In this document: positions 16,873 through 63,897 of the stretch, piece after piece
Numbering within the stretch: the stretch's first letter is position 1
Layout: the number at the start of each line of letters is the position of its first letter
NCBI GenBank assembly: GCA_024231215.1
Contig: JAAEQR010000142.1
Location: 420,593 to 484,592, forward strand
DNA length: 64,000 nt
Direction: 5' to 3'
Source of the DNA: PVC group bacterium
Lineage (GTDB): Bacteria; Omnitrophota; Gorgyraeia; B26-G9
Notes under the pieces: generated by a model
Database searches by the model: none
The model's input: only the letters and a program-made list of their open reading frames with translations
Told to the model about the DNA's origin: nothing
Program-made: the position numbers and the translations under genes

Positions 16873-16923
16873 AATAATTTATACCAATTAAGAATTAATT
16901 TTTTATCTTTTTTTGTCTTACTA

Positions 16924-16944
16924 CTTACAGCTTATAGCTTACGG
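16924..16944. repeat. Heptanucleotide tandem mini-array (3 x CTTAYRG) overlapping the ntpB stop, upstream of ntpD
   Basis: cttacag cttatag cttacgg. Same motif family as the array at 58053-58087. Confidence 0.5.
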
Positions 16945-18270: not shown

Positions 18271-18281
18271 AATATTACTCC

Positions 18282-20048: not shown

Positions 20049-20077
20049 TACATCCTCCGTATGAATTCTTTATAGTC

Positions 20078-41045: not shown

Positions 41046-41757
41046 GTTCGATATTAACTAAAAGGTATTTCTCTGCATCTTTTTTACGCTGAATACTTAT
41101 TTTTTCCACAATATAAATACGTTCTGTTTCTACCAATTCTTTTAAAAAATGATTTAGTGACGAAAAATCAGATTCCAATGATAACTGCATCGGAATCGTC
41201 TTCAATGCTCCATTATGGTATTCATGAGAAAGCTTGATTTGTGTAATAGCGTTCACACGGCTATTTAACAATAAGCTTACAACCTCTTCTGCGGCAATAA
41301 GTTCTTTATTCAAAACTATAATTTGTTCTTGCTCAGGCACAGCAAAATCATATTCCTGAAAACCCAACGATTCCGGCAACCCAATATCTTTTGCAGACGC
41401 TTTTTGTTTTATTTTTTCCTGAAAATCGAAAAGTTTTTCTTTAAACGCTAAAGGTGTATTTGAGATTGCAGTTTCATCAAAAGAGCACGTAAAAACCCTA
41501 ACAAATTCAACATATTTTTTATGCAAATCCTGCGCGATAAATTCCTGTCTTTCCAGAACTTCATCCGGCCCTACTCCGTAAACAGCTCGATAGTGCTGCA
41601 ATCGATCTTTCAACTCTACAGATTCTACACAGCTACGCCGGTTAATATAAATCCCTATTCCAGCCGTAAGCATTAATACAATGCTCCCAATACATAGAAT
41701 AGTAATCAAGCTTATGGTTCCTTTGAATTTCTGGATTAAAAGTTTATTCACCTTCAT
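41026..41757 (-). CDS. pilO: PilO-like type IV pilus assembly protein
   Basis: 243 aa. Single N-terminal TM, coiled coil, periplasmic domain. Position after pilMN. Confidence 0.6.
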   Translation of the reverse strand: MKVNKLLIQKFKGTISLITILCIGSIVLMLTAGIGIYINRRSCVESVELKDRLQHYRAVYGVGPDEVLERQEFIAQDLHKKYVEFVRVFTCSFDETAISNTPLAFKEKLFDFQEKIKQKASAKDIGLPESLGFQEYDFAVPEQEQIIVLNKELIAAEEVVSLLLNSRVNAITQIKLSHEYHNGALKTIPMQLSLESDFSSLNHFLKELVETERIYIVEKISIQRKKDAEKYLLVNIELEHKEI

Positions 41758-47881: not shown

Positions 47882-49567
47882 TTAGTCCACATCACTTTGC
47901 GTCACCCTAACCACTTCTTGAAAACTGGTTAATCCTTCCAAAACCTTATTTACAGCATGTTCTTTTAAAGTCATCATTCCCATCGATCGCGCCTTTTCAC
48001 GTATTTCAGTACTAGGAAGCCGTTTATGCGTCATCTGACGAATTTCTTCATTAATCACCAAAAGCTCAAAAATACCGGATCTACCTAAATATCCGGTATG
48101 TGCACATTTAGGACATCCTTTAGGTCTATAAAATCTTTTTTTTGCTTCCTCTTCCGAGAGTTCTAAAATCTTCAACTCATCCTTAGGGGGAGAATACAAT
48201 TCTTTACAATTAGGACATAATAAACGAATAAGTCTTTGAGCCAAAATCGCCCTAATCGTAGCAGCAACCAAATAAGGTTTTATCCCCATATCAATAAGTC
48301 TGGTAATCGCACTTGAAGCATCATTAGTATGCAAAGTACTAAAAATCAAATGCCCAGTCAAAGCTGACTGCACCGATATATTTGCTGTTTCTAGATCACG
48401 GATTTCTCCGACCATTATAATATCCGGCGCCTGCCTAAGCATAGAACGCAGGACCTTTGCAAAAGAAAGTCCGATTTTCGGCTTAACTTGCACTTGATTG
48501 ATCCCGCTTATTTGATATTCAACGGGGTCCTCAACCGTAAGTATTTTTCGCTGCGATCGATTTACACTGCTCAACACAGCATAAAGAGTAGTACTTTTAC
48601 CACTGCCGGTCGGACCGGTAACCAGAATTATACCATTTGGAAAATCAGTAATACTTTTAAATTTTTCAATTTGAGCCGGAGAAAAACCCAGCTCATTTAC
48701 TTTCATAACACGACGATCTAGAATACGTAATACAACGCTTTCTCCATAATGTGACGGAAGAGTAGAGACTCTTAAGTCAAATTCACGGTTATCTACAACT
48801 GTACGAATACGTCCATCTTGAGGCAAACGTTTTTCCGCAATATTCATTCCAGCCATAAGTTTAACTCGACTAATGACTGAAGCCTGCAATTTCTTTACCG
48901 GAGACTGCACTTGTTGTAATATTCCATCGATCCGATAACGAATTCTTAAAATATCACGCATAGGTTCTACATGGATATCGCTCGCTCTTTTTCGATAAGC
49001 ATCAGATATAAGCATACTTACCAGTTGGATAACCGGTGCATCATCTTCTGTTGTCCCGTTTTCCTCATCTGCATTTTCTGAAGGATCAACCGCCGATATA
49101 TCTTCATAAGCAATCGGATAATACTTCTTTAATAATTCCTCCATAGCATCTGACTTAATCAGTTCTGCATTCAAAGCATATTTCAAAGTCTGGGAAAAGT
49201 ATTCCAGGGAAAGAAAATTAAGCGGGTTATCAAACGCTATTGTAAGCACACCGCCTTCAAGCTGCAAAGGAACAACTCCAAACCGGTTAGCAAAAAAAGG
49301 ATCGAGAATATCTAATAATTGCGGATCTAAAGAAAAGGTGGACGGATCAACAGCTGACAGACCAAGTTCTTCAACAATCAATCCACCTAAATTCTCGTCG
49401 CAAAATACGTCTAGTTTCTTAAATATACTGTTGATATTCTGCTGGGTACGAGCCTGCATCTGCCGGGCTTGTTTTAACTGATCTAAAGAGAGAATCCCTT
49501 TTGCAGTAAGAAACTCGCTGATAATCTTTTGTTTATTCAGCATGTAAATCCTGTAGGGTTCCGGCAA
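47882..49567 (-). CDS. Second GspE/PilB-family ATPase with MshEN-like N-domain
   Basis: 561 aa. Walker A GPTGSGKSTT. Zn-finger CPNCKELY...CPKCAHTGYLGR. N-terminal IISEFLTAKGILSLDQLKQARQMQ motif. Confidence 0.8.
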   Translation of the reverse strand: MPEPYRIYMLNKQKIISEFLTAKGILSLDQLKQARQMQARTQQNINSIFKKLDVFCDENLGGLIVEELGLSAVDPSTFSLDPQLLDILDPFFANRFGVVPLQLEGGVLTIAFDNPLNFLSLEYFSQTLKYALNAELIKSDAMEELLKKYYPIAYEDISAVDPSENADEENGTTEDDAPVIQLVSMLISDAYRKRASDIHVEPMRDILRIRYRIDGILQQVQSPVKKLQASVISRVKLMAGMNIAEKRLPQDGRIRTVVDNREFDLRVSTLPSHYGESVVLRILDRRVMKVNELGFSPAQIEKFKSITDFPNGIILVTGPTGSGKSTTLYAVLSSVNRSQRKILTVEDPVEYQISGINQVQVKPKIGLSFAKVLRSMLRQAPDIIMVGEIRDLETANISVQSALTGHLIFSTLHTNDASSAITRLIDMGIKPYLVAATIRAILAQRLIRLLCPNCKELYSPPKDELKILELSEEEAKKRFYRPKGCPKCAHTGYLGRSGIFELLVINEEIRQMTHKRLPSTEIREKARSMGMMTLKEHAVNKVLEGLTSFQEVVRVTQSDVD

Positions 49568-49606: not shown

Positions 49607-50362
49607 TTACAAACATCCCTTAATAATTCCTAAGAAAGATTCAGCTTTTAACGCCGCGCCCCCGACAAGTGCTCCGTCAATATCCGGCTGCGCAATTAAA
49701 ATTTTAATATTATCGGGTTTCACACTTCCACCATATTGAATGCGCAGTTTTTCAGCTACTTCGCTTCCAAAATTATCTGCAATAAGTTTTCTAATAAAAG
49801 CATGTACTTCTTGGGCCTGCTCCGGAGTTGCAACCTGGCCTGTACCAATCGCCCATACAGGTTCATAAGCAATAATTATATCCTTAAGATCATCGGCGCT
49901 TAACCCTTCCAATGCCCCGGTCACATGATTACGAATCACATCAAATGTCTCGTTTTTCTGCCGTTCTTCTAAACGTTCTCCCACACAAACAATCGGCAGT
50001 AATTCAGCCTTTAAAGCAGCTTTTAATTTTCTGTTTACATATTCGTTAGTTTCTTTAAATATATTGCGGCGTTCCGAATGCCCGATTAAAACATAATCAC
50101 AATTAGCATCTTTTAACATCTGCGCTGAAATCTCACCGGTAAAGGCACCTTTTTCCTCCCAAAATAAATTCTGCGCACCCAACTTTATATTTGAACCCTC
50201 TATTTCGTGACTAACACTATACAAAGCCGTAAACACCGGACAGATTACAACGTCTACATCTTTTACGTCTTTAAGCTCCATACTTAATCCACGCACCAGA
50301 TCCAATGCTTCGGTTATCGTTTTATTCATTTTCCAATTTCCCGCAATAATTGTACGTCTCAT
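49607..50362 (-). CDS. tpiA: Triosephosphate isomerase
   Basis: 251 aa. IIAGNWKMNKT and the AYEPVWAIGTG signature. Confidence 0.9.
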   Translation of the reverse strand: MRRTIIAGNWKMNKTITEALDLVRGLSMELKDVKDVDVVICPVFTALYSVSHEIEGSNIKLGAQNLFWEEKGAFTGEISAQMLKDANCDYVLIGHSERRNIFKETNEYVNRKLKAALKAELLPIVCVGERLEERQKNETFDVIRNHVTGALEGLSADDLKDIIIAYEPVWAIGTGQVATPEQAQEVHAFIRKLIADNFGSEVAEKLRIQYGGSVKPDNIKILIAQPDIDGALVGGAALKAESFLGIIKGCL

Positions 50363-50407: not shown

Positions 50408-50863
50408 TTAAAGACTTGTAATATCATCTCCACCCCCGGAACCTCCATCCGGCCCGTTTGAGCTTATTTTATACGTAGAACCGATACGAGTATATACATA
50501 ATCATTTCCCCAAACATCGATAACCGTACCATCGGCAGCTACTGTTCCATTTAAATCTTCCTCTTTCAAACTTATATATGGCCCATTCCAGTCAGGATCA
50601 GGAGAACTCCCGCCGGATCCATAAGCACCTACATCCGCAAGGCGATCAACCAAAATCACATTACCCGCTGCAGGATAATCACCAAAATCCGCGTGATACA
50701 TTGCCAAGGCAGTTTCTAAAGAAGCAATCATAGATTTAGTACGGTAGATTTTTGCCTTCCCGCGTGCAGCCGTACCACCGCTAACCAGCATGCCCATAAG
50801 AATGGAAATAACCGCAATCATCACTAATATTTCAATCAATGAAAACCCTTTTTTATCTCTCAT
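50408..50863 (-). CDS. Prepilin-type pseudopilin, GspG-like
   Basis: Class III signal KKGFSLIEILVMIAVISIL. GspG-like VIDVWGNDYVY motif. Lies between pgk and tpiA. Confidence 0.7.
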   Translation of the reverse strand: MRDKKGFSLIEILVMIAVISILMGMLVSGGTAARGKAKIYRTKSMIASLETALAMYHADFGDYPAAGNVILVDRLADVGAYGSGGSSPDPDWNGPYISLKEEDLNGTVAADGTVIDVWGNDYVYTRIGSTYKISSNGPDGGSGGGDDITSL

Positions 50864-50866
50864 AAT

Positions 50867-52048
50867 CTATTTATCTTTTAACGCCGCTATTCCCGGCAAT
50901 TCCAGGCCTTCCAAAAATTCAAGACTCGCTCCGCCGCCGGTGGAAACATGGCTCATTTTATCCTTAACATTAAAACATCTTACGGCACTCGCAGTATCTC
51001 CACCGCCAATGATACTTGTTGCTTCTAAGTCAGCAATATATTTAGCAAGAACTTCAGTACCTTTTGCAAACGGAGCCATTTCAAATACACCAACCGGTCC
51101 GTTCCAAACAATTGTTTTTGCGTTTTGTAATTTTTCTTTGAACAACTCTATTGTTTTAGGCCCAACATCTAAACCCATATATCCTTCCGGTATTTCCTCC
51201 CCTACACTCTGGACATTGGCATCTGCCTGAAATTTATCCGCCACGACATTATCAACCGGTAAAACCACATCAACACTGTTAGCCGCAGCTTTTTCTAAAA
51301 TTAAACGAGCTAGATCCAAACGATCTGCTTCAAGCTTAGAGTTACCAATTGCCTTGCCCTGCGCCTTTAAAAACGTATACGCCATTCCTCCGCCGATCAA
51401 CAAACAATCTACTTTATCCATAATATTTTCAATCATTTTGATTTTATCAGATACTTTCGCCCCGCCCAATATAGTTATAAAGGGACGTTCCGGGGATTCC
51501 ACCACCTTACCTAAATACTCAATTTCTTTTTCAATTAAAAATCCAGCATAAGACGGTAGATAATGCGCAACTCCTTCTGTAGATGCATGTGCACGATGTG
51601 CAGTTCCGAATGCATCATTAACAAAAACATCTCCCAAACAAGATAATTGCTTGGCAAATTCCGGGTCATTCTTTGTTTCCTCAGCATGAAAACGTAAATT
51701 TTCCAGAAGAATCACACGCTCTGAAGCTGCTTCAACTTCCTTCTCTATCTCTTCGCCCACACAATCATCCAGCTTTTTTACCGGCATATCCAGCAATTCG
51801 CTTAATTTTTTTGCAACTGGGCTAAGACGCATTTTCTCGACTACATTTCCCTTAGGCCGGCCAAGATGGCTCATCAGGATAACCTTCTTAGCTCCTTGCT
51901 CCAGACAATATTTAATTGTAGCTAAAGCAGAAGTGATTCTCAATTCATCGGTTATATTCAAATTTTCATCTAGCGGCACGTTAAAATCCGCCCGCATTAA
52001 GACCTTTTTGTCTTTTAAATCCGCATCTTTCACTGTCATCTTATTCAT
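50867..52048 (-). CDS. pgk: Phosphoglycerate kinase
   Basis: 393 aa. Canonical PGK N- and C-domain motifs. Confidence 0.9.
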   Translation of the reverse strand: MNKMTVKDADLKDKKVLMRADFNVPLDENLNITDELRITSALATIKYCLEQGAKKVILMSHLGRPKGNVVEKMRLSPVAKKLSELLDMPVKKLDDCVGEEIEKEVEAASERVILLENLRFHAEETKNDPEFAKQLSCLGDVFVNDAFGTAHRAHASTEGVAHYLPSYAGFLIEKEIEYLGKVVESPERPFITILGGAKVSDKIKMIENIMDKVDCLLIGGGMAYTFLKAQGKAIGNSKLEADRLDLARLILEKAAANSVDVVLPVDNVVADKFQADANVQSVGEEIPEGYMGLDVGPKTIELFKEKLQNAKTIVWNGPVGVFEMAPFAKGTEVLAKYIADLEATSIIGGGDTASAVRCFNVKDKMSHVSTGGGASLEFLEGLELPGIAALKDK

Positions 52049-52401: not shown

Positions 52402-52944
52402 TTACGGTATGACAATTTTAGATATCAATAACTCACACTGGGCAGTACTTGATTGTCTTGATTTAGGGGTAATACTAAACGCGCTTAACTGAAACAGTTT
52501 ATCCGCACTCTCAATAGCATATAGAAAAGAAACTAATGCCTCCATATCTGCGGTACAATTAATGCTAACTAAGAACTTTTTCACTCCGCCCTCGGCTTCA
52601 ACGCTAAGTGGTTTCATATCAGCAAGATACACGTTAAATTCACTCGACATGGTTTCTAATTCTTTTAACAACGCAGCGGTTTCTTCTTCTTCTGAGCCTG
52701 CCTCCACAGAAAATGATGCATATTCTTTTTCTTCGGCTTTAATTCTTTTTTTCTGAGCAATAATCCTAGTATTCTTTTTGATCTCCTCCTGTGTGTTTTT
52801 AATATCTATTTCCAATGACTGCATTTTATGGAAAATAGGCCCAATAACAGCTCTATCCATCACTGCAAAAAGCACAAATAAAACAGACAGGTATAAAACA
52901 GTTTTTTCTCTTTTAGATAATTTAGCAATAAATCCTTTTGTCAT
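52402..52944 (-). CDS. GspM/PilO-like assembly protein (single TM + periplasmic domain)
   Basis: 180 aa. N-terminal TM. Position after the GspL-like gene. Confidence 0.5.
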   Translation of the reverse strand: MTKGFIAKLSKREKTVLYLSVLFVLFAVMDRAVIGPIFHKMQSLEIDIKNTQEEIKKNTRIIAQKKRIKAEEKEYASFSVEAGSEEEETAALLKELETMSSEFNVYLADMKPLSVEAEGGVKKFLVSINCTADMEALVSFLYAIESADKLFQLSAFSITPKSRQSSTAQCELLISKIVIP

Positions 52945-52946
52945 GA

Positions 52947-54416
52947 TTAGTTTTTCTTCTTCTCTTCTGAGGGTTCTGCCATTTCCTCTTTATTTTCTAG
53001 AATACAAGATATACCAAAATCAGCCCAATCTTCACCATCTTCCTGCCGAGAAGTTGTATAATTAGTCTGAACATTACTGAAAAAATCTGAATCCTCCAAA
53101 GAAACAACAAATGCAAAAACATCAGACATTGCCCTGCCGGTACCTTTTAAATACAAGTTCCCTTCCTGACTCATCTTAATACTGTCAAGCAAAATCCGCT
53201 TTGGCAAAACATCATATATCGAAGCTAACACCTGTAAAGGATACCCTCGTGCTTTAATATAGTGTTTGATTATTCTCATTTTTTCCATAGATTTCTCTAA
53301 TATCTGGGCTTCATGATTAGTCGATTCATATTCAGACTTAAGTTGCTGTAAGTATGTGCTTTTAAAATAAATCTTTCCCAAAAATAATCCGCCAATTAAA
53401 ATTAGCAAACAAATAATATACATTCCTGTTTTCATCAATGCCTGGGCATGCTCTTCAAAAGACCGTTTAAGCTTAATCTCCTCAGGGATAAGGCTTACTT
53501 TCATCGCCATTGGATTTAAAAGTACTGATGCTACATTAAAAAAGGATAGATGCCTGGCGATTGAAGGCACTGCCGCAATATTCGGACCAAGCGGTAAATG
53601 TTTAAAATACGGCATTGTTTGTACCGGGATATGCAACGAAGCTGTCAAAGCCATTTCTATATCTTTTGGCTGGTCTATTGCACCGGTTAACACCAAAACA
53701 TGCGGCGATTTATCAATATCTTCTGAATAATAACTTTCCATAGAATTTTTCAATTCCTCAACAAACTTATCGGTATCTGTGGAAATTTGGTCAATTCCTA
53801 TAGGTATACTTCTGGTAAAAATCGGATTTCCCCGCAAAGACACAATAAAGTCGGTAAAATTAGCATCAATATGAATAATTCCAACCGGAACTGCCTGCAA
53901 TTCATTCCTCAGATTAGCTAAACAAAAACGGCTAATTCCTTCCGGCGCAAAAAGCGTTTTTTCAATCTTAACACCAACTTTTTCCATTATTTCAAACTGG
54001 CGTTTAATTGCCACACGCGTAACAATTACTAAAAGAATTTTAGTATAACTTTGCCGATAATTTCCCAAATCAACATAATCAATAATTATTTCTTCACGAG
54101 CATATGGGGTCTGTCGACCGGACTGCAAATCGATAATTTCTCTTATCTCTCGAGGATCAAGAGATGGGATTTCCAGATTTTTAGTAATTGCTAGATGCAA
54201 TGGAACAACATTTATCAAATAGGGATTTTTAATTTTAAGTTCTTTGAAAAGATTCTTTATCATTTTGACAATATCATCATCTGAAGCTTCCTTAATATTA
54301 TACGTGGTCAAATTGATTAGTTCTTTTTTAGTCCCTGTTTTTTTAAGATAAGCAAAAACAAGCTCATCTCCGTCTAGATCAATTCCAACTATATCCGCAT
54401 TATTTTTTATACTCAT
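52947..54416 (-). CDS. GspL-like / PilM-PilN-type fusion (cytoplasmic actin-like domain + TM + periplasmic domain)
   Basis: 489 aa. IVGIDLDGDELVFAYL actin-like start, TM around residue 330. Confidence 0.6.
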   Translation of the reverse strand: MSIKNNADIVGIDLDGDELVFAYLKKTGTKKELINLTTYNIKEASDDDIVKMIKNLFKELKIKNPYLINVVPLHLAITKNLEIPSLDPREIREIIDLQSGRQTPYAREEIIIDYVDLGNYRQSYTKILLVIVTRVAIKRQFEIMEKVGVKIEKTLFAPEGISRFCLANLRNELQAVPVGIIHIDANFTDFIVSLRGNPIFTRSIPIGIDQISTDTDKFVEELKNSMESYYSEDIDKSPHVLVLTGAIDQPKDIEMALTASLHIPVQTMPYFKHLPLGPNIAAVPSIARHLSFFNVASVLLNPMAMKVSLIPEEIKLKRSFEEHAQALMKTGMYIICLLILIGGLFLGKIYFKSTYLQQLKSEYESTNHEAQILEKSMEKMRIIKHYIKARGYPLQVLASIYDVLPKRILLDSIKMSQEGNLYLKGTGRAMSDVFAFVVSLEDSDFFSNVQTNYTTSRQEDGEDWADFGISCILENKEEMAEPSEEKKKN

Positions 54417-54441
54417 AATATTCCTAACCCAAAATTTGGGT

Positions 54442-55512
54442 TTAATTTAAATATCGCAACCGCCAGCTTAAAATCAAGCCGGCTTTCTTTGTATCCGGAT
54501 CTATATCTTTTTTAAAAACACATCTAATTTGACATCTTCCTTTTCTATAATTTAATGCCGATTCACTCTGAATAAGAAAGATTTCAGAAGATGTAGAAAG
54601 CTTACCCTGAGAAACTAATATGTTCAATTCCGTCACTTCTGAAGGAGCAAGCGCATAGATTTTACTTAACTCAGCCGACAAAACTCCTGCATTAATAAAC
54701 ACCCGATCATCTATACTTGTTGCAATTCCGTCCTCTCCACAACGAAATAAAAGAATCTTCCGTATTAACTTCTTATTTAAACCTAATGCGCGTAATACAG
54801 ACCGTGAAGCAGTATTAATATTTACTTGCCCTGTCCCGTAAACCGTAAGATACGACCGTATTTTGGGCAAAATTTCAGCGTTTATTCCCTTTATATAACA
54901 CAATTCTTCCAACGCCTGAAAGGATCTGTCTTTACAATTATACGGCAGACTTAAACTACGATAATATGCGCTTTCAGCCCCATTAGGCAGTGATTGTGTA
55001 TCCTCATCGCGCCAATCTACTATACTTGAAGCAATAATATCAGCATCACGAGGTTCAAGATCTGTAACAGCACGAATTAAACGTATCAATTCACTCCGGC
55101 TGGCTGTATTAATATTCATCCTGCCGCTAAGATCATTAACTCCGAACATGGTTAGTTCGGTTTCATCATCCGCTGCTGCATCCGGAGTATAGTCCCCCGG
55201 CATATATTTATACCCTACTCTAAAATATCCATCATTAACAACGCCTTTAGAAAAAATAGATTCCTGGTTACACATCGGTGTTTTTAAAGAAACCCTCATT
55301 GCCTGTGCATCAAAATTTCCAATTTCACTAACAGCTTTTTTCACTCCGGCTTCGGCAATAAGTAAAAGTTTATTCCTCGTTTCCAACCTTTCTAAAAAAT
55401 CCAGGCGCTGCCGCACACTGATTCCTAAGTATACCGCAAAAACCGTAAAAAGTCCAAGCATCCACAACACTAAAACAAGAATAGATCCAGTTTCTCTAGT
55501 TTTAAATTTCAT
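54442..55512 (-). CDS. GspK-like minor pseudopilin
   Basis: 356 aa. Hydrophobic N-terminus LVLVLWML without Glu5. HhH-like NINTASRSEL and a second NINTASRSVL repeat, typical of T2SS protein K. Confidence 0.6.
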   Translation of the reverse strand: MKFKTRETGSILVLVLWMLGLFTVFAVYLGISVRQRLDFLERLETRNKLLLIAEAGVKKAVSEIGNFDAQAMRVSLKTPMCNQESIFSKGVVNDGYFRVGYKYMPGDYTPDAAADDETELTMFGVNDLSGRMNINTASRSELIRLIRAVTDLEPRDADIIASSIVDWRDEDTQSLPNGAESAYYRSLSLPYNCKDRSFQALEELCYIKGINAEILPKIRSYLTVYGTGQVNINTASRSVLRALGLNKKLIRKILLFRCGEDGIATSIDDRVFINAGVLSAELSKIYALAPSEVTELNILVSQGKLSTSSEIFLIQSESALNYRKGRCQIRCVFKKDIDPDTKKAGLILSWRLRYLN

Positions 55513-55521
55513 TTAACTTCT

Positions 55522-56175
55522 TCAATTTAATATTCCGCCAGCCGGTATATTTATAGTTTTTATTCTTTGTTCAATTGTTTTATTATCCACAAAAGCCAGT
55601 TTTATTTTTACTGCCAGGGGGAACACTGTCTGCATCGACTCTAGTTCCAATGGAGGCCAGATTGAACTCCAAAAAAATGTTTCCTTTTCCTGATCATAAA
55701 AATAATATTGCAAGGAAAAAGACTGCACCTCTTCAAGTAACTGCCTGGCTATTGGTTTATGTTTAGAAAATAAACGCTGATAATCAACTTCTTTTCGATG
55801 CAAAGTCTTTTCCTGCTCATCATAAGAATAACTCACTCTTCCCGCAACAGACTCAAAATAATCTTCCCACCCAGGCCCGCTTTTTAACACCGTGGAAAAA
55901 GTAAACTCTGTTTCTCCTCCGGTAAGCGCCTGATCGGAAAAAGCAAATCCATTTTGAAGTTCTTCAGTAATCCGCTCAAAGAACAGATTCACATCAATTT
56001 GGGGAGAATCCCTGGTTACTAACTGCCATACCTTTATTCCGTTAGAAAGCATCACATATAACACTATTGCCAGCACAACAGACATCGCCGTACTCATAAG
56101 CATTTCAACAAATGTAAATCCACTTTTTCTGCTTTTTTTGCAAAACATTATAGTTGCTCTACCGGCCCCAGACAA
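55522..56175 (-). CDS. Minor pseudopilin (GspJ-like), prepilin-type N-terminus
   Basis: GFTFVEMLMSTAMSVVLAIV class III signal. Probable start MFCKK at 56148. Confidence 0.55.
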   Translation of the reverse strand: MSGAGRATIMFCKKSRKSGFTFVEMLMSTAMSVVLAIVLYVMLSNGIKVWQLVTRDSPQIDVNLFFERITEELQNGFAFSDQALTGGETEFTFSTVLKSGPGWEDYFESVAGRVSYSYDEQEKTLHRKEVDYQRLFSKHKPIARQLLEEVQSFSLQYYFYDQEKETFFWSSIWPPLELESMQTVFPLAVKIKLAFVDNKTIEQRIKTINIPAGGILN

Positions 56176-56248
56176 TCGTGGCCCCTTCAGTTTTTTTATT
56201 TACAATCATCTGTTTCGGGCGGACGCAAGGCCCGCCCCTACGGTTTTT
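56175..56248. other. GC-rich structured island between two pseudopilin genes: hairpin GGGCGG-N9-CCGCCC plus GGCCCC-N10-GGCCCC direct repeat and T6 tract
   Basis: Local GC is far above the window average. Oriented like an intrinsic terminator on the plus (antisense) strand; on the sense strand it is followed by an A-tract. Confidence 0.35.
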
Positions 56249-56756
56249 TCTGCAAAGGGTAGGCATTAGAAAAAAATCTTTTTGCCATGGTAGCCCTTTG
56301 AATGGATCGACTTTTAGATGCTTCATCCCATGAGATTGAAGCATCTACATCATACAACTCCTGGGTTACATCATCTAATGTCAGATTGATCTGCCAATTA
56401 AACCGCCGGCCATCAATACGTTCTATACCACTTTGCTGCGTAGCCAAAAAACTGCCCGAGCTCTGGTCTAGATTTTGCTGTACCTGCCAAATTTTTTCAT
56501 TAATAAAAAACTGCGCATTCAAACGATTGAAGAAAAAATTAATTGTGTCTAACGATACTAAAAATGATTCATAAATAACAACCAGACCTACAGCCAAAAT
56601 AACAACTGAAACCATCACTTCAATTAAGGTGAAACCCGCTGATGGCTTATGGCTAATAGTTAATAGCCGTCCTTTATCCTTAGATTTTGGCTTTTTTTTG
56701 ACTATGGACCATGGACTATTAGCTATAGACTGTTTAGTCCCAATTCGTAACATCAT
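56238..56756 (-). CDS. Minor pseudopilin (GspH/GspI-like), prepilin-type
   Basis: SAGFTLIEVMVSVVILAVGLVVI class III signal. The 41-aa leader in the track ORF suggests the true start is internal or non-ATG. Confidence 0.55.
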   Translation of the reverse strand: MMLRIGTKQSIANSPWSIVKKKPKSKDKGRLLTISHKPSAGFTLIEVMVSVVILAVGLVVIYESFLVSLDTINFFFNRLNAQFFINEKIWQVQQNLDQSSGSFLATQQSGIERIDGRRFNWQINLTLDDVTQELYDVDASISWDEASKSRSIQRATMAKRFFSNAYPLQKKP

Positions 56757-57138
56757 CGGTACTTTCTACCCCATCTTTACCTACTGAATAAAGATCATAA
56801 TCCTGAGGACGATGTTCCCCCGGAGACTTATATTCATATACTCTTCCCCAAGGATCTATCGGCTCTTTTTCTAAATAAGGACCATTCCAATTTATACCTG
56901 AAGTCGGTTTTGTCAATAGTGCCTGTAACCCTTCTGAGGTAGTAGGAAATCCACCGTTATCCAGCTCAAAAAGCTTCAATGCCGTAGCAATATTTGCACG
57001 AACATCTGCCCGGGCAGCCGAAGAACGTGCCTGTTCAGAACGTCCGGCCAATCGAGGCAGTACCATAGCCGCAAGTGCACTGATAATAATTACAACAAGC
57101 ATCAACTCAATTAACGTAAAACCATAATTCTTTTTCAT
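56734..57138 (-). CDS. gspG: Major T2SS-type pseudopilin GspG
   Basis: 134 aa. NYGFTLIELMLVVIIISALAAMV and the GspG hallmark DPWGRVYEY. Confidence 0.8.
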   Translation of the reverse strand: MKKNYGFTLIELMLVVIIISALAAMVLPRLAGRSEQARSSAARADVRANIATALKLFELDNGGFPTTSEGLQALLTKPTSGINWNGPYLEKEPIDPWGRVYEYKSPGEHRPQDYDLYSVGKDGVESTDDVTNWD

Positions 57139-57199
57139 AACACACCCTCCTCCAGGTAATAGACCTATTTTTTAAATACCATATTTTTTGAATTTTGAC

Positions 57200-58045
57200 T
57201 TATTTTAATATGTATTTCACCCATTTCTCTTCAAAATCAGCTAATGTACTCATCTTTGTGGGATAAGTATGGCTTAAAGCTCTCGCTATACTTGCGCCAT
57301 CTCTAAGCTGACGACAGAAAATAACAAAATCTTCCGCGTAATATCTCTCGACCAAAAAACCAACAAGGGAAAATGCCTGCAAATAATAAGCCGCGACAAG
57401 ATCACTGCCATCTACAATCTGAACATTTTTACCACCCAGAAATCGCAGCTTAACTTTTTGCCCTTGACTTACCTGTCGGATATCCATACGCATCATATCT
57501 TCCAAGGGAATTAAACGCCCATTCTGTGCCAGCTGTTTGATCATCAGCTTTCTTTCCTGCCTCTGCTGATGTTCCTCCCATTGAGCAACCCCTTCATCCA
57601 ACCAAAGCGGTACTTCTCCTTTAAATCCGACAAAATCACGAAATATCAAATGCGCAAGTTCATGCGGCAACAACTGATCGACAAATCCTTCACTCCAGGC
57701 ATAACTAATTATCTCTTTACGATTATAGTCAGCCATACCACGCGACCAGCTTGGTCTTCCTGAATCTTCCACATAGGAATCATGGTCAGAATGAATATAA
57801 ATTTTCACCCTGTCATCCCACTTCCAGAACCCGGAATACCGGACATATCCTAAATCATCCGCAATTGAATTATAATATTTTTCTGCCTTACGGGAAACCT
57901 CACGGGCAAAATTTTTATATTCACCAGATTTATAATAAACAATGAAATGATCTCCTTTGATCTCGGCCCAATCACTTTTCGCCTGTATCAAAGAACAAAA
58001 AACGAAAAAACAGAGACAAAAAATTACCAGAAATTTTATTTTCAT
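57200..58045 (-). CDS. Secreted zinc metallopeptidase-like protein (HExxH, peptidase MA-like), embedded in the pseudopilin module
   Basis: 281 aa. Signal peptide MKIKFLVIFCLCFFVFCSLIQA. HELAHL motif with downstream EG. Confidence 0.55.
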   Translation of the reverse strand: MKIKFLVIFCLCFFVFCSLIQAKSDWAEIKGDHFIVYYKSGEYKNFAREVSRKAEKYYNSIADDLGYVRYSGFWKWDDRVKIYIHSDHDSYVEDSGRPSWSRGMADYNRKEIISYAWSEGFVDQLLPHELAHLIFRDFVGFKGEVPLWLDEGVAQWEEHQQRQERKLMIKQLAQNGRLIPLEDMMRMDIRQVSQGQKVKLRFLGGKNVQIVDGSDLVAAYYLQAFSLVGFLVERYYAEDFVIFCRQLRDGASIARALSHTYPTKMSTLADFEEKWVKYILK

Positions 58046-58052
58046 AAGTTTC

Positions 58053-58087
58053 GCTTACAGCTTAAGGCTTACCGCTTATAGCTTACT
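58053..58087. repeat. Heptanucleotide tandem array (5 x GCTTAYN) filling the gspF-peptidase intergenic gap
   Basis: gcttaca gcttaag gcttacc gcttata gcttact. On the mRNA sense strand this reads as NNNAAGC with a strict 7-nt period. Confidence 0.6.
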
Positions 58088-58088
58088 T

Positions 58089-59312
58089 TTAGTTCATCAC
58101 AACATTAATCTGAAATACAGGCAGGAGCATAGCAATAATAATTCCCCCGATTATTATTCCCATAATTAAAATCATTATCGGTTCCAAAAGATTCGTCATT
58201 ATTTTGACCGACTCATCTGTTTCTCTTTCATAAGTATTGGTCAGCTCCTCCAGCACTTCTTCTAATCGGCCCGATTCTTCCCCCACACTTACAAGATTAG
58301 CCATAAACTTAGGGAATACAGGAAAACGCTTAAGCGTTCTACCTACAGATTCTCCACGTTCTATATCTGAATACCCCTGTCGCAATGCTTCCCGAATCAT
58401 TTCATTACTCAGGGTGGGAATACTTACTCTTATCGCGTTCAGCAACTGAATCCCGCTTTTTAAAAGCAGCTCCAGCGTACGACTAAAACGTGCCAGCTCG
58501 GTTTTAAGAAAAATCTCGCCAAAAATCGGCAAACGCAATTTTAAAGCACTTAACATCAATTTCTGCTTTTTAGACCGCATTCCATATTTTATTATCAGTC
58601 CAATTGCTACACATAATAAAACAAACCCTACCCATACCCATCCTTGACGCAAAAAATGACTTATCGCAATAAGTATTTTTGTCGGCAAAGGAAGATCCTG
58701 TCCTAACCGGGTAAAAATCTTGAGCAATTTAGGCATTACAAACATTAGCATAAAAACAACAGTACCTACCCCCACAACTGCCATAAGTAGCGGATAAGTA
58801 AGTGCGGTACGAACATTAGATATGATCTGTTCCTGCCGATATCTATATTCGGAAATTCTAAATAATGCTTCATCTAAAGTACCGCTATTTTCTCCTGTAC
58901 GCACCAAAGCAATATACAGAGGAGAAAAAATTTTTAAATACCCTTCAAGTGCAGCAGATAACGTCCGACCTTTTTTGATTTCCCCATAAATTTCATTAAC
59001 TACAGCCTTTAGATAATTATTCTCCGATTGCTCTGCTAAAACACCCAAAGCTTTTAAAATCGGAACCCCTGACTTAAGCAAAATTGATAACTGCCGCGTA
59101 AATACCGTGATCCGTTTTTTACTAACTCCCAGACGAAAAAGACCGCCTTTGGACAATGGCATTGCATCTGCAGCATCTGTCTTTTCAATATGCATTGCCA
59201 GATATCCCAGCTGGCTTATTTTTTCTATTGCCTCTTCTTTTGAATCAGCTTCAATCGTTGAATCAATAATGTCATTTGGTCCTTTTTTGGCCCGATATTT
59301 AAACGTACCCAT
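58089..59312 (-). CDS. gspF: GspF/PilC-family platform protein (second copy)
   Basis: 407 aa. Two GspF repeats, 3 TM helices. Confidence 0.8.
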   Translation of the reverse strand: MGTFKYRAKKGPNDIIDSTIEADSKEEAIEKISQLGYLAMHIEKTDAADAMPLSKGGLFRLGVSKKRITVFTRQLSILLKSGVPILKALGVLAEQSENNYLKAVVNEIYGEIKKGRTLSAALEGYLKIFSPLYIALVRTGENSGTLDEALFRISEYRYRQEQIISNVRTALTYPLLMAVVGVGTVVFMLMFVMPKLLKIFTRLGQDLPLPTKILIAISHFLRQGWVWVGFVLLCVAIGLIIKYGMRSKKQKLMLSALKLRLPIFGEIFLKTELARFSRTLELLLKSGIQLLNAIRVSIPTLSNEMIREALRQGYSDIERGESVGRTLKRFPVFPKFMANLVSVGEESGRLEEVLEELTNTYERETDESVKIMTNLLEPIMILIMGIIIGGIIIAMLLPVFQINVVMN

Positions 59313-61483
59313 TAATCCCCTCGCAATACAAACCTGTTCAACCTTGACCGCTCCACATTAGGCAAATCTAAAAAACACACAGCTATCTCATAATTCTTGT
59401 TCGGTACTATTTCTTCAACTCTTATTACCCTCGCCAGACACTGCACCGAAGTTTCATCGGGAAGTTCCAAAGTTAAATCAACCATCTCCCCCACAGCTAA
59501 ACTTTCTGAGGTATCGAATAAAAGACCTCCCGCACTGATATTCTTTGTAACCGCAACCTGTTCCGGCTCATACCCAGCGTTCTTTTGGCCTGTTTTAAAA
59601 AATGTATACCGCACATATACCCGATTATCGAGGCGTTCAAAAACACGTCTGTCAGCCGGATCAATTGAATCAATTTCCTTCTTAACCGGTTTTATTTTTT
59701 CAGGTGAGATCTTTTTCACTGCCGGAGCCGCAGGAACAACCGGTTCTTCTACTTCTTCCGCTAAAGAAACCTCATCCGCCTGAGTAACACGCAATATTTC
59801 ATCAGTAGTAGTTACTCCTTCGATAACTTTCAACCAGCCGCTTTGGCGCAAAGTTCTCATCCCGCAATTCACAGCGCATCTTTTAATATCCTCACTTGAG
59901 ACTTTCTGCAAAACCAGCTTTCTTATAGATTCATTTAAAATTAGAATCTCATATATTGCAGTACGACCATAATACCCTGTAGAATTGCAGGACTGACATC
60001 CTTTACCGCGGTAAAGTTTAATTTCCTGACTATGATCATGACCTAAATCCCGTGCAATCTTCTCTTTTATATCCGTCGATTCAGTAATTTCTTCGCGGCA
60101 ATGAGGACAAATAACCCGTACCAATCGCTGAGCAATAAAACATTCCACGCTGGAAGCAACCAGATAAGGCTCAACCCCGACATCAACAAGCCTGGTAATT
60201 CCGCTGGCAGCATCGTTGGTATGTAACGTAGAAAAAACAAGGTGGCCGGTAAGTGCCACACGTATTGCTATTTCCGCAGTCTCCAGATCTCTCACCTCAC
60301 CGACCATCATAACATCCGGGTCATGGCGCAGCATACTGCGCAATCCGCAGGCAAAACTTAAACCTACAGCCGGTGTAACCTGGATCTGAGTTATTCCTTC
60401 AAGTTCATATTCAATTGGATCTTCAATTGTAATTATTTTACGCTTATTTGTATTGATGCAGGATAAACAAGCATAAAGCGTGGTGGTTTTACCACTACCG
60501 GTGGGACCAGTCAGGAAAACTATTCCATGTGGTTTGTCCAGTAACCCAGTAATCGACTGAAACTCTTCCGGAGCAAGCCCCAGCCTATCTAAGCCAAATA
60601 ACATTGTAGTCGGTAAAATCCTGATTACCACACTTTCTCCGTAAGGAGTCGGAATAAAAGAAACTCTCAGGTCCAAAGTTTCATCCTGAACCTTAACCAC
60701 AGCCCGGCCGTCTTGCGGTACACGCCGTTCTACAATATTCAAGTTAGCCATTAATTTAATCCTGGAAAGTATCGGAGTAAGAAAACTCTTCATTTCCGGA
60801 GAAAGATTAGCTTCATAAAGAATTCCGTCAATTCGATAACGCAAACGGATCTTACTGCGATATGGTTCAATATGAATGTCTGTTGCCCGTTTCTTATACG
60901 ATTCTAATATTATCTGATTCACTAATTGGATCACAGACGCAGTGCCGCTCAAGGCCTCAAGGTCTTCTACCTGTTCTTCTGCTTGAATTTTTGTTTCTGA
61001 GCTTTCGTATGTCTTTTGGGCAATTATCTTTTCTAAAGTCTCCGCCCCAAGACCATAGTATTTCTTAAGCATCTCAAAAATATCTTCTTCACAACTAATA
61101 CCTATAGCTATATTAAATCCAAGCTGAGTTCTTATCGCATCCTGCTTTTTTATATCTAGTGGATATGCAACTGCAATGGTCAAAGTCCGGTTTTCCAGTT
61201 TTACAGGAATAAACTTATAATAGGAAGCAACTTTAACCGGAACTTTTTTAATAGCATTATCATCTATCGGAATTGACTTTAAATCTAAATACAAGATATG
61301 GAGTTGGTTAGCAATATTTTCTAAAAGCTGTGCTTCAGATAAATTTGCACGTTGAGCTAAGAAAGGAACAGGTGAAGACTTTCTGTTTTCAGCTTCCGCA
61401 AAACAAGACTGGATAGTTTTTTCATCCAGCAGATTACGGTCAAGCAATAATTGCGTGACAATAGTATTGGTTTTTTTATCCAT
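59312..61483 (-). CDS. gspE: GspE-family secretion ATPase with N-terminal MshEN-like domain and C-terminal PilZ domain
   Basis: 723 aa. Walker A GPTGSGKTTT. Zn-finger CPHCREEI...CQSCNSTGYYGR. A ~150-aa C-terminal extension carries PilZ motifs RRVFER (RxxxR) and NISAGG (D/N-x-S-x-G-G) about 30 aa apart. Confidence 0.8.
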   Translation of the reverse strand: MDKKTNTIVTQLLLDRNLLDEKTIQSCFAEAENRKSSPVPFLAQRANLSEAQLLENIANQLHILYLDLKSIPIDDNAIKKVPVKVASYYKFIPVKLENRTLTIAVAYPLDIKKQDAIRTQLGFNIAIGISCEEDIFEMLKKYYGLGAETLEKIIAQKTYESSETKIQAEEQVEDLEALSGTASVIQLVNQIILESYKKRATDIHIEPYRSKIRLRYRIDGILYEANLSPEMKSFLTPILSRIKLMANLNIVERRVPQDGRAVVKVQDETLDLRVSFIPTPYGESVVIRILPTTMLFGLDRLGLAPEEFQSITGLLDKPHGIVFLTGPTGSGKTTTLYACLSCINTNKRKIITIEDPIEYELEGITQIQVTPAVGLSFACGLRSMLRHDPDVMMVGEVRDLETAEIAIRVALTGHLVFSTLHTNDAASGITRLVDVGVEPYLVASSVECFIAQRLVRVICPHCREEITESTDIKEKIARDLGHDHSQEIKLYRGKGCQSCNSTGYYGRTAIYEILILNESIRKLVLQKVSSEDIKRCAVNCGMRTLRQSGWLKVIEGVTTTDEILRVTQADEVSLAEEVEEPVVPAAPAVKKISPEKIKPVKKEIDSIDPADRRVFERLDNRVYVRYTFFKTGQKNAGYEPEQVAVTKNISAGGLLFDTSESLAVGEMVDLTLELPDETSVQCLARVIRVEEIVPNKNYEIAVCFLDLPNVERSRLNRFVLRGD

Positions 61484-61550
61484 AATTATTCCGTTAATTA
61501 TAGTACTTTAACTGATATTTTCTTTATTATCACATCAATAACAATGTTTG

Positions 61551-62969
61551 TCAATCCAAGGCCCCGATCATGTAAAATTCTTTTTCTCCCCGCTTATCGA
61601 ATTCACCCGCCATGATCCGCTTACAGTCCCTTACTGTTTCTTCTACAGTTACATATACACCTTTTCGACCGGTATAAACTTCAGCTACAAAAAACGGCTG
61701 AGTTAGAAAATTTTGGAGTTTCAACGCCCGTTCATAATTAGTACGGTCAGCCGCCGAAAGCTCATCAATACCAACAACTAATACTATTTTTCTTAATTCT
61801 TCGTATCGCTGAAAAATACGCAGTACATCTTGCGCAATATCATAATGATAGTTCCCTACAATATCCGGATCAAGATTATTACAGGCAGATAACAACGGAT
61901 CTATCGCCGGATAAAGCCCCATCTGCACCCGTTCACGCGAAAGAACAATAAGCGAATCCAAAAAACTAAAAATAGCTACTACCGCAGGGTCAGTCAAGTC
62001 ATCAGCCGGAACGTATACTGCTTCGATAGAGGTTATTGATCCGCCCAATGCCTTTTCGGATCTGATCCTTTCATGAAAATCCGCAGCCTCAGATATTAAA
62101 GTTGGCTGATATCCGGTTTCTGAAGGCACTCTGCCTAACAAAGTAGAAATCTCCTGCCCCGCCTGTAAAAAACGAAATACATTATCAATAAATAGAAGTA
62201 CATCTTTATTTTGTCTTTGAATACTTTCAGCCAGGGTTATCCCGGTCATAGCCACCCCGTAACGCGCTCCCGGCGGTTCATTCATTTGACCAAACACCAT
62301 TTTTATTTTAGGCAATAGTCCTTGGTTCTCTAATTCAAGATAAAGTTCATTACCCTCACGAATACGCTCTCCGGCACCGGTAAACACACACGCCCCCTGA
62401 TGTCTTTTAACAATATGCTGGATGATTTCCAGGGTAAGAACACTCTTACCCATAGCCGCACCTCCGAGGATCCCGTTTTTACTTCCTTTTACCAACGGAA
62501 ATAAAAGATCAATAATTTTAATCCCTGTTTCTAACAGTTCTACTCCTACCTTTGCTCCTTCTTCTTTGCTGACTTTAGTTCCTTTGGCCGCACGACGGAT
62601 CGGCCGCATTTCCACAGAATTAATCGGTCCTTTCTGATCTATCGGCTCACCCACAACATTCATCAGACGCGTATACACTTCATCTCCCACCGGAATTTCT
62701 ATTCCACCACCAGGCACAAATGCCGGAGAATTCCTCTGCATATTCAAAGTTGAATTAATAGATATACAACGCGCGATATTTCCGGGAAGATGTTCGGCAA
62801 CTTCCAAAGTAACTTTTTTGTCATCAACTGTATAGCTGGTAATAACGTCAAAGACATTGGGTACGTCTTGCTGATGCGTAAATTTCACATCAACTACCGG
62901 CCCCTGAACAGCTACCACCCATCCGACAACCTTTTTCTTTTCCTGTTTACTCGCTTGTTTAGTTTTCAT
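61551..62969 (-). CDS. atpD: F1 ATP synthase beta subunit (divergent: P-loop GGAAMGKS, DELSAAD in place of DELSEED)
   Basis: 472 aa. LLFIDNVFRFLQAGQEISTLLGRVPSETGYQPTL and AGERIREGNE are beta-specific. Confidence 0.85.
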   Translation of the reverse strand: MKTKQASKQEKKKVVGWVVAVQGPVVDVKFTHQQDVPNVFDVITSYTVDDKKVTLEVAEHLPGNIARCISINSTLNMQRNSPAFVPGGGIEIPVGDEVYTRLMNVVGEPIDQKGPINSVEMRPIRRAAKGTKVSKEEGAKVGVELLETGIKIIDLLFPLVKGSKNGILGGAAMGKSVLTLEIIQHIVKRHQGACVFTGAGERIREGNELYLELENQGLLPKIKMVFGQMNEPPGARYGVAMTGITLAESIQRQNKDVLLFIDNVFRFLQAGQEISTLLGRVPSETGYQPTLISEAADFHERIRSEKALGGSITSIEAVYVPADDLTDPAVVAIFSFLDSLIVLSRERVQMGLYPAIDPLLSACNNLDPDIVGNYHYDIAQDVLRIFQRYEELRKIVLVVGIDELSAADRTNYERALKLQNFLTQPFFVAEVYTGRKGVYVTVEETVRDCKRIMAGEFDKRGEKEFYMIGALD

Positions 62970-63897
62970 GTGTCATCCTAGACGCGAAAAGCTCGCGCAT
63001 ATTTTGATCAACTATTTCATGTTTAGCGCGAAAGTATTTCAATTTAAGTTTTTTATCTAATTCTTTTATCCTCTGCGTGCAAAATTCAAGATGCATAAAA
63101 CGTGCCGCTTGTTCTGCCAAATTACTTAACCCAAAAATCTCAAATATCTTTTGCCCCAGCCAAAGATAAAGAAGGTATTCAACAAGATTATCAAATTTTG
63201 ATTCTAAAATAATCTCATTCAGCTCTAAGTTTGCCGGGCTCTTTTTTATATCCGGCACAAAAGGTAATACCTGTACCACTTCTACCCGCTGCATCGTAAA
63301 AGAAAGGGGTCTTGAAAAAACCAGTTTTACCGGTCCTAGTTTTCCTTGCAAAACATTATCTACGATATAGTCCCTTAACTGTAAAGCCTGTTCCAACCTT
63401 TTTTCCTGACTAATCCCCGGGAAAACCGCAAATACCATCTTATGTTTTTCCACGTATAACCTACCACGCTTGCCAATAATAATCAGTTTGCTATCCTGTT
63501 GCTGTACCTGGGTTAAGGCTTCATTCATAATCATAGCATTATATCCGCCCAAAAGACCAGCGTCTGAAGTTATCGCAATAATAGCTGTTGTTTTTTTAGA
63601 TTCGCTTACAAAAGGATGCTGTACTTTCTGCATATCCAGCCAGTAAAAAAAACTTTCTATCGCCTCAAGATAAGTCGCAAATGTCTTATTTTTCTTTTCC
63701 AAGCTATGGTATTGCGTGATCGCAATCATCTTTAATAACCCAATTAAAGATCCCAGCGATTTATAAAAATCCATATCTTCTTTTAACTTGGAAATTGAAC
63801 TCATAATATTTCGTATCTCGTGTTTAGCATCTCGTATCTCGTGTTTAGCATCTCGTATCTCGTGTTTAGTATCTCGTATGTGCGAGATACGATTCAC
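62959..63897 (-). CDS. atpG: F1 ATP synthase gamma subunit (probable true start at 63804)
   Basis: ITSDAGLLGGYN gamma signature. The first 31 codons of the track ORF read through 21-nt tandem repeats (HEIRDAK x3), and M32 (MSSISKLK) is the more likely start. 11-nt overlap with atpD. Confidence 0.75.
   Translation of the reverse strand: MNRISHIRDTKHEIRDAKHEIRDAKHEIRNIMSSISKLKEDMDFYKSLGSLIGLLKMIAITQYHSLEKKNKTFATYLEAIESFFYWLDMQKVQHPFVSESKKTTAIIAITSDAGLLGGYNAMIMNEALTQVQQQDSKLIIIGKRGRLYVEKHKMVFAVFPGISQEKRLEQALQLRDYIVDNVLQGKLGPVKLVFSRPLSFTMQRVEVVQVLPFVPDIKKSPANLELNEIILESKFDNLVEYLLYLWLGQKIFEIFGLSNLAEQAARFMHLEFCTQRIKELDKKLKLKYFRAKHEIVDQNMRELFASRMTHEN
63807..63892. repeat. 3.5 tandem copies of a 21-nt unit (3 heptads: catctcg tatctcg tgtttag) followed by an inverted copy (CGAGATACGA), immediately upstream of the likely atpG start
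   Basis: Copies at 63807-63827, 63828-63848 and 63849-63869, with a partial copy at 63870-63880. The 7-bp hairpin TATCTCG/CGAGATA sits at 63870-63889. Shares the ACGAGATACGAAA-ATG junction with the purL leader array. Confidence 0.7.

Follow-up and report, generated by a model that had tools for sequence, protein, structure and literature searches.

An Omnitrophota GspE/PilB-type assembly ATPase with a fused canonical PilZ domain and a degenerate MshEN site, predicted to take its cyclic di-GMP input in cis

The stretch of DNA analysed here (the window) comprises 64,000 nucleotides of contig JAAEQR010000142.1 (positions 420,593 to 484,592 of the forward strand) from a PVC group bacterium assigned to the Omnitrophota (Gorgyraeia; B26-G9; NCBI GenBank assembly GCA_024231215.1). 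At 59312-61483 on its minus strand, an open reading frame (ORF) encodes a 723-residue protein, termed E-PilZ, in which an MshEN-fold N-terminal domain, a T2SSE ATPase core and a C-terminal PilZ domain are fused, as assigned from the ORF list, Pfam and NCBIfam. The reading favoured for this protein, at a probability of roughly 0.7, is that it serves as the assembly ATPase of a type II secretion system (T2SS)-like type-IV-filament machine, with its cyclic di-GMP (c-di-GMP) input moved to the cis-fused C-terminal PilZ domain, which would gate the ATPase. Nucleotide positions refer to the window, and all domains, motifs and genes of the E-PilZ operon given below lie on the minus strand. E-PilZ is identical to NCBI entry MCP4650256.1, encoded on a 497-kb contig of a metagenome-assembled genome and named only ‘Flp pilus assembly complex ATPase component [PVC group bacterium]’. 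The sensor domain is thereby concealed, as it is by the other names in use in databases (‘Flp pilus assembly complex ATPase component TadA’, ‘ATPase, T2SS/T4P/T4SS family’).

The first-pass annotation of the window, made from the sequence alone, had described a 723-residue GspE-type ATPase ORF with a zinc-finger core and an extension of about 150 residues beyond the GspE-like C-terminus. The ORF was confirmed, on the minus strand, and the HMMER scan against Pfam that the annotation had proposed returned MshEN, T2SSE and PilZ, each exceeding its gathering cut-off. The T2SSE match (PF00437, 430.7 bits) covers the N2D and CTD of the ATPase core (aa 180-565, 59789-60946) and stops at residue 565, leaving a tail of 158 residues. 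Located within the core were the Walker A motif GPTGSGKT (aa 326-333, 60485-60508), the Walker B motif DPDVMMVGEVRD (aa 388-399), the His box TGHLVFSTLHT (aa 412-422) and, as anticipated for a zinc finger, a tetracysteine formed by CPHC (aa 459-462) and CQSC (aa 496-499; together 59987-60109). The ATPase core carries all catalytic motifs, intact. Against the NCBIfam equivalog models, E-PilZ scored 576.4 bits for GspE (TIGR02533, cut-off 630.25) and 559.2 bits for PilB (TIGR02538, cut-off 675.65). Because both cut-offs were missed, the protein is placed in the GspE/PilB superfamily and is assignable to neither equivalog.

The tail opens with a flexible linker rich in acidic residues, proline and alanine, which joins the ATPase to the PilZ domain and was delimited by comparison with homologues (aa 568-611, 44 residues, 59651-59782). 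Among 114 homologues this linker is 22-63 residues long (median 32) and rich in E, S, A, K and P; identity to the query across the family is 17% in the linker and 50% in the PilZ domain. The latter (aa 612-720, 59324-59650) is a canonical PilZ β-barrel with a C-terminal helix according to Pfam, AlphaFold2 (AF2) and Foldseek. The PF07238 match scored 47.9 bits (E = 1.8e-12, cut-off 22.5) and covered model positions 2-101 of 102. Modelling of aa 606-723 by AF2 with 30 homologues, a check named in the first-pass annotation, predicted the six-stranded barrel and helix of a PilZ domain, with strands at 18-23, 37-44, 48-53, 62-68, 75-88 and 92-99 and a helix at 104-117 (model numbering) and with a mean predicted local distance difference test score (pLDDT) of 85. 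When this model was compared by Foldseek with the Protein Data Bank (PDB), the top 45 matches were all PilZ structures (TMq up to 0.73), including MotI, Alg44, BcsA, YcgR, MapZ, MrkH, PlzD and PP4397, many of them bound to c-di-GMP. A phmmer search of PDB sequences matched the tail to Bacillus subtilis MotI/YpfA in an alignment spanning both PilZ motifs.

These motifs are RRVFER (aa 612-617, 59633-59650), corresponding to the PilZ RxxxR, and NISAGG (aa 648-653, 59525-59542), corresponding to [D/N]hSxxG, and they are separated by 30 residues. In the 120 best homologues R613 and G653 are invariant (120/120 each), R617 and N/D648 are each conserved in 119, S650 in 115 and [R/K]612 in 104. The segment RRVFERLDNRVYVR holds three overlapping RxxxR motifs; residue 621 is K in 58 and R in 32 of the 120 homologues and R625 is present in 92. 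Since conservation singles out R613 and R617, aa 612-617 were taken as the functional RxxxR of this segment. Chance matching in a low-complexity tail, one of three findings that the first-pass annotation had said would refute a PilZ assignment, does not explain the motifs because they lie inside a folded domain that matches only PilZ structures; the other two, absence of a PilZ profile match and absence of a β-barrel, were likewise not what was found. Pfam, AF2, Foldseek and residue conservation all agree on the C-terminal PilZ domain with its two motifs, and the tail is considered very likely to function as a c-di-GMP receptor.

The N-domain consists of a four-helix MshEN_N subdomain (aa 1-62, 61298-61483; delimited by AF2, Foldseek and motif tests) followed by an α-β MshEN_C/GSPII (N1D) subdomain (aa 63-146, 61046-61297; Pfam and profile matches), and Pfam MshEN (PF05157) matched aa 64-146 with 56.6 bits (cut-off 23.1). 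The AF2 model of aa 1-150 (pLDDT 91.5) places helices at residues 3-15, 21-34, 39-45 and 50-61. Its best Foldseek match was 5HTL, the Vibrio cholerae MshE structure with c-di-GMP (template modelling score, TM, 0.72-0.77), followed by the GSPII domains of Thermus PilF and the N-domain of Xanthomonas citri PilB from its complex with PilZ (7LKO). A profile of the family matched 5HTL at E = 4e-15 and also matched PilB, MshE and the X. citri PilB N-domain. The resemblance to MshEN that had been noted at first pass therefore holds at the level of the fold.

Binding of c-di-GMP by MshEN involves two tandem 24-residue motifs of the form RLGxx(L/V/I)(L/V/I)xxG(L/V/I)(L/V/I)xxxxLxxxLxxQ, and Arg9 and Gln32 of MshE were reported as needed for it (Wang et al. 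2016, PMC5013675). Residues were mapped by an ungapped alignment to MshE residues 7-71, in which MshE residue n corresponds to E-PilZ residue n-1; the local alignment proper begins at MshE L13, and the R9 and G11 assignments extend the fixed offset. In the first motif, R9, G11, G18 and Q32 of MshE correspond to I8, T10, N17 and A31 of E-PilZ; in the second, R38, L39, G40, G47 and Q61 correspond to S37, P38, V39, A46 and Q60. Seven of the eight Arg/Gly/Gln key positions are thus replaced, and the hydrophobic scaffold and Q60 alone remain. Neither the strict nor the relaxed form of the published motifs was present in the first 90 residues of E-PilZ or of any of the 120 homologues, and the first 70 residues of E-PilZ alone matched no MshEN structure in a sequence search. 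The curated NCBIfam model for the c-di-GMP motif, NF053729 (cut-off 38 bits), gave no match to E-PilZ even at E ≤ 10. With this model P0132, the nearest unfused relative (50% identical), reached 67.7 bits and a PilB-like paralogue in the window (44879-46606) 59 bits, the latter also aligning to MshE at E = 1.5e-8. Within the E-PilZ family, 15 of 23 N-termini matched NF053729 at E ≤ 1, these too being devoid of the Arg, the third-position Gly and the Gln, and the top-ranked members tested were borderline at 30.8-38.6 bits. Of the folded parts of the family, MshEN_N evolves fastest, with 28% identity. The E-PilZ N-domain has retained the MshEN fold and lost the c-di-GMP-binding residues, and members of the family seem to form a graded series in the decay of an ancestral MshEN site.

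The 120 best matches in a collection of 5.8 billion proteins (54-72% identity, 701-748 aa) all have the same three Pfam domains, and the named proteins among them are nearly all from Candidatus Omnitrophota. When one genome per Genome Taxonomy Database (GTDB) species was scanned with peptide patterns specific to the family, 120 loci were returned, almost all from Omnitrophota with a few under other metagenome-assembled genome labels; a scan of this design cannot pick up independent T2SSE-PilZ fusions elsewhere. In a HMMER scan of 1.84 billion representatives at 50% identity, the top 150 contained six full-length fused proteins and three fragments, the remainder being unfused proteins of approximately 570 aa or proteins with other add-ons. 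Proteins of approximately 1000 aa were considered as longer PilZ fusions and rejected, their Pfam architectures being tandem T2SSE-T2SSE, T2SSF-T2SSE, REC-MshEN-T2SSE and T2SSE-double-zinc-ribbon. The nearest unfused relatives are varied in architecture (P0124, P0126, P0129, P0130, P0133, P0134, P0240, P0255), and the GspE/PilB-type ATPase family seems often to gain add-on modules. Judged from these sequence matches, the T2SSE-PilZ fusion constitutes one compact clade found almost entirely in Omnitrophota, and it appears to be the rule across this phylum of ultra-small, probably host-dependent bacteria.

Gene order was compared across 80 loci and proved remarkably constant; it runs F-type ATPase gamma, beta, E-PilZ, gspF, Peptidase_MA, gspG, two prepilin-type genes, gspK, PilM-PilN and a GspM/PilO-like gene. 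Near the fusion, gspF is kept in 76 loci, Peptidase_MA in 54 and gspG in 49, and F-type ATPase genes lie immediately 5' of E-PilZ in 61; because contig ends cut many loci, these are minimum counts. The order is the same in the most divergent fused representatives. In one locus (L082, 1872-6993) the F-type genes run alpha-epsilon-c-OSCP-gamma-beta with E-PilZ close behind beta, and in this locus and another (L084, 114-3266) the gap between the F-type genes and E-PilZ is 6-12 bp. The closest unfused relative, P0132, lies on a 4.9-kb contig, and its upstream gene was not an atpD homologue by tblastn.

Within the window, E-PilZ heads a T2SS-like operon and is preceded by a promoter-like site of its own, TTGACA-17-(TG)GATAAT (61526-61554), which lies 43 bp 5' of the ATG and agrees with the consensus at 11 of 12 positions, as a consensus match only. 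Upstream are a divergent F-type ATPase gamma gene (62959-63897; 99.9 bits against a cut-off of 194) and, directly adjoining E-PilZ, F-type beta (61551-62969), with no epsilon gene behind beta in the window. The E-PilZ stop codon overlaps the ATG of gspF (TAATG), which encodes a GspF/PilC-type platform protein (58089-59312) with two Pfam T2SSF matches and an NCBIfam GspF score of 353.7 bits, below the cut-off of 424. Between gspF and gspG sits a secreted Peptidase_MA (57200-58045, from Pfam) with HELAH at residue 128, an N-terminal signal-like peptide and no NCBIfam match, which may be cargo or an accessory of the secretion machine. The major pseudopilin gene gspG (56734-57138) matched its NCBIfam equivalog at 136.1 bits (cut-off 88.85) as well as Pfam T2SSG and N_methyl. 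It is followed by minor pseudopilins assigned by Pfam as N_methyl (56238-56756), GspJ-like (T2SSJ, 55522-56175) and GspK (T2SSK, 54442-55512; NCBIfam GspK 76 bits, below the cut-off of 130), then by a GspL-like PilM-PilN fusion (Pfam, 52947-54416) and a GspM/PilO-like protein with a T2SSM_b match (52402-52944). The operon headed by E-PilZ, with gspF, an HExxH peptidase and pseudopilin and platform genes, accordingly stands as first described. No secretin, GspC or prepilin peptidase was found in the operon (52402-61483), nor a prepilin peptidase among the window ORFs scanned.

The ORFs scanned include a single secretin (38371-40275, TPR-STN-secretin), which belongs to a second, type IV pilus (T4P)-like cluster, also on the minus strand (44879-46606, 47882-49567, 46697-47764, 43628-44872 and 38371-43381) and 3-14 kb downstream of the E-PilZ operon. 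It contains two PilB/GspE-type ATPases, PilT, PilC/GspF, PilM, PilO and the secretin, so that three GspE/PilB paralogues, one PilT and two GspF/PilC genes occur within 18 kb. The PilB-like paralogue at 44879-46606 (575 aa, approximately 13 kb from E-PilZ) is without a PilZ domain and passes NF053729, and two types of c-di-GMP receptor module are therefore found on two motors of one super-locus. The remaining paralogue, of 561 aa, fails NF053729 and has no PilZ domain.

Several further features of the surrounding DNA were recorded. The two filament clusters are separated by pgk (50867-52048) and tpiA (49607-50362), both on the minus strand, and an extra GspG-like prepilin gene (50408-50863) lies between these two. 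An ORF of 257 aa on the minus strand (40272-41045), between PilO and the secretin in the position expected for a PilP-like protein, has no Pfam match, and neither does an ORF of 346 aa at 21661-22701 (minus). A 21-bp tandem repeat (63811-63879, 3.3 copies, 97% matches) at the 5' end of the gamma-like ORF would encode HEIRDAK repeats if translated; the true start of this ORF is probably a downstream ATG (MSSISKLKED...). Genes for a V/A-type ATPase are present on the minus strand at 14504-20878, with subunit A at 18282-20048, subunit B at 16939-18270, an I-subunit-like gene at 14504-16285 and a DUF2764 gene at 20078-20878. Because V/A-type and F-type genes share the window, the cell has two rotary ATPase systems.

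In the mechanism proposed for E-PilZ, c-di-GMP would bind to the RRxxxR loop and the NxSxxG strand of the PilZ tail. In published PilZ structures, c-di-GMP tends to be bound as an intercalated dimer when an Arg precedes the RxxxR. Residue 612 divides between R and K across the family and is R in E-PilZ, where c-di-GMP would probably be bound as such a dimer. With the RRxxxR loop forming the final stretch of the 44-residue linker, the tether would become ordered and shorter once ligand is bound, and this ordering may pull the PilZ barrel against the ATPase hexamer. The barrel could then dock on the ligand-free MshEN/N1D, by analogy with the PilZ that docks in trans on Xanthomonas PilB, and docking would change the activity of the ATPase or the way it engages the GspL-like PilM-PilN/GspF platform. 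In related ATPases the MshEN_C/N1D surface binds PilM/GspL or PilZ, as in the X. citri PilB(12-163)-PilZ crystal complex (PMC8389850); N1D/MshEN is tentatively preferred as the docking site in E-PilZ. High c-di-GMP may activate the motor through relief of autoinhibition as in BcsA. Activation is favoured because the known c-di-GMP inputs to GspE/PilB-type ATPases are positive (MshE; FimX stimulating PilB), although as a statement on direction it is held at even odds and, like the docking site, is argued from related systems. To our knowledge, every characterised c-di-GMP input to a GspE/PilB-type assembly ATPase promotes assembly.

Several observations weigh against the proposal of a PilZ-gated motor that has exchanged one receptor for another. 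The MshEN motif, searched as a regular expression, was found in none of the fused proteins and in 51 of 147 unfused representatives, and was hence missing in the other 96. These counts were considered as statistical support for a receptor swap and rejected, the fused proteins being one clade and most unfused proteins also failing the motif. As the fused clade represents a single evolutionary event, ‘replacement’ of MshEN is a reading of that one event. A few family members reach the NF053729 cut-off (38.6 and 38.2 bits against 38), and the docking site and direction of regulation are drawn solely from analogy. The sole GGDEF protein of the window, a GAF-GGDEF protein of 658 aa (5567-7543, minus strand), has a degenerate active site in which SGEQF replaces GG[D/E]EF, and the window therefore does not establish c-di-GMP synthesis. 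Its RxxD I-site (RNVD), five residues upstream of SGEQF, is intact, and by these motifs the protein probably has a c-di-GMP-binding or regulatory role and no cyclase activity. Counted in favour of the proposal is the presence of c-di-GMP components in the window, in the form of this GAF-GGDEF gene, and in the phylum, for which a genomics paper has reported pilZ genes and GGDEF domains. A more extended scenario, regarded as a long shot, is that an Omnitrophota ancestor gained the PilZ domain, the MshEN site decayed and N1D became the dock for the cis-PilZ, as a covalent counterpart of the Xanthomonas PilB-PilZ contact; with an MshEN site kept by the neighbouring PilB paralogue, one c-di-GMP pool, read by two receptor types of differing affinity, would then select between two filament machines that share a secretin and are linked to a non-canonical F-type ATPase, during host-cell attachment or attack.

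Three other explanations of the fusion were weighed. The first-pass annotation had suggested that c-di-GMP could be bound at both ends of the polypeptide, by the N-terminal MshEN and the C-terminal PilZ domain alike. The fold of the N-domain, with 5HTL as its best structural match and its Pfam MshEN match, is in keeping with this, as are the weak NF053729 matches among the family N-termini, two of which reach 38 bits; on account of these weak or borderline matches the ancestor or some members may have been dual-site receptors. For E-PilZ itself the suggestion went unsupported and is held to be very improbable: the replaced positions include the equivalents of MshE Arg9 and Gln32, no strict or relaxed motif occurs in 120 members, NF053729 and the structure-sequence search with the first 70 residues gave no match, and the segment is the least conserved of the folded parts. 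Alternatively, c-di-GMP might act on the PilZ tail as a brake, inhibiting the ATPase and shutting down secretion or pseudopilus assembly when its level is high, as YcgR and MotI do on the flagellar motor. By sequence and by structure alike, the tail is indeed matched best by MotI/DgrA, a c-di-GMP-dependent motility inhibitor, and PilZ domains of known systems act in both directions. The likeness to MotI is that of the generic PilZ fold only (20-22% identity), however, and the known inputs to ATPases of this type are positive, with FimX enhancing PilB ATPase activity and MshE likewise, so that a brake is thought unlikely.

The remaining alternative, in which the PilZ tail binds c-di-GMP without controlling catalysis and serves as a localisation or partner-selection module, is likewise viewed with considerable doubt. 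Such a module might bring E-PilZ, in preference to its PilB-like paralogues, to a platform or secretin that they share, or might couple it to the F-type ATPase. This alternative draws on the crowding of three GspE/PilB paralogues, PilT and two GspF/PilC proteins into 18 kb with one secretin, on the intact MshEN motif of one paralogue, which puts two receptor types on two motors, and on the F-type ATPase genes that adjoin E-PilZ at most loci. PilZ adaptors of Xanthomonas, moreover, work through complex formation and polar co-localisation (PMC8389850). Set against this, the characterised cis-fused PilZ domain of BcsA directly gates the enzyme to which it is attached. Localisation and gating of the ATPase by the PilZ domain are not mutually exclusive.

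PilZ has long been known as a receptor and occurs fused to many different outputs. The first-pass annotation knew of no characterised GspE-PilZ fusion, and none was described in the literature searched on PilZ, GspE/PilB-type ATPases and Omnitrophota. The fusion goes unmentioned in the Galperin and Chou analysis of PilZ-related domains, a large-scale PilZ similarity-network study, the MshEN paper (PMC5013675), a 2024 review of PilB cofactors, a 2023 review of c-di-GMP receptor evolution and Omnitrophota genomics papers. As the architecture shows in precomputed Pfam annotations, the fusion is uncharacterised rather than undetectable. A ‘symbiotic’ F-type ATPase/type IVa pilus locus has been described in every Omnitrophota class and proposed to serve host-cell attachment and motility on the host, in a study that makes no mention of PilZ, c-di-GMP, GspE or PilB (Seymour et al. 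2023, PMC10066038). Judging by its genes and their order, the E-PilZ locus appears to be of the same kind, with the clade-defining alpha subunit lying outside the window. A c-di-GMP input on the motor would give a handle on the regulation of this F-type-ATPase/filament locus, proposed for host attachment, in a phylum without genetics, and the biochemical prediction is a simple one for which a single soluble protein suffices as a test.

Control of GspE/PilB motors by c-di-GMP is already known in two forms, via MshEN in cis and via PilZ/FimX in trans, and a canonical PilZ domain attached covalently to the motor would add a third route, the most direct of them. The MshE/PilB/PilF-type ATPases (5HTL; Wang et al. 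2016, PMC5013675) belong to the same ATPase family, share the N-domain fold and likewise sense c-di-GMP on the motor polypeptide itself; unlike in MshE, the 53-residue MshEN site of E-PilZ is degenerate and the predicted receptor, PilZ, is located at the opposite end. The X. citri PilB-PilZ-FimX system (7LKO/7LKM; Llontop et al. 2021, PMC8389850) combines, as E-PilZ does, a PilB-type ATPase whose MshEN-like N-domain is without c-di-GMP binding and a PilZ-fold module, and filament assembly there comes under c-di-GMP control. In X. citri, however, the PilZ protein is separate, non-canonical and unable to bind c-di-GMP, the EAL domain of FimX being the sensor, whereas the PilZ domain of E-PilZ is canonical and covalently fused and, by this comparison, would need no FimX-like partner. 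BcsA (4P00) and Alg44 (4RT0), which are among the best structural matches to the tail, show a canonical attached PilZ domain gating its own protein; their outputs are a glycosyltransferase and a co-polymerase, while that of E-PilZ is a hexameric secretion ATPase. What is new is the canonical PilZ domain on the C-terminus of the motor together with the degenerate MshEN, combined as the standard state of a phylum.

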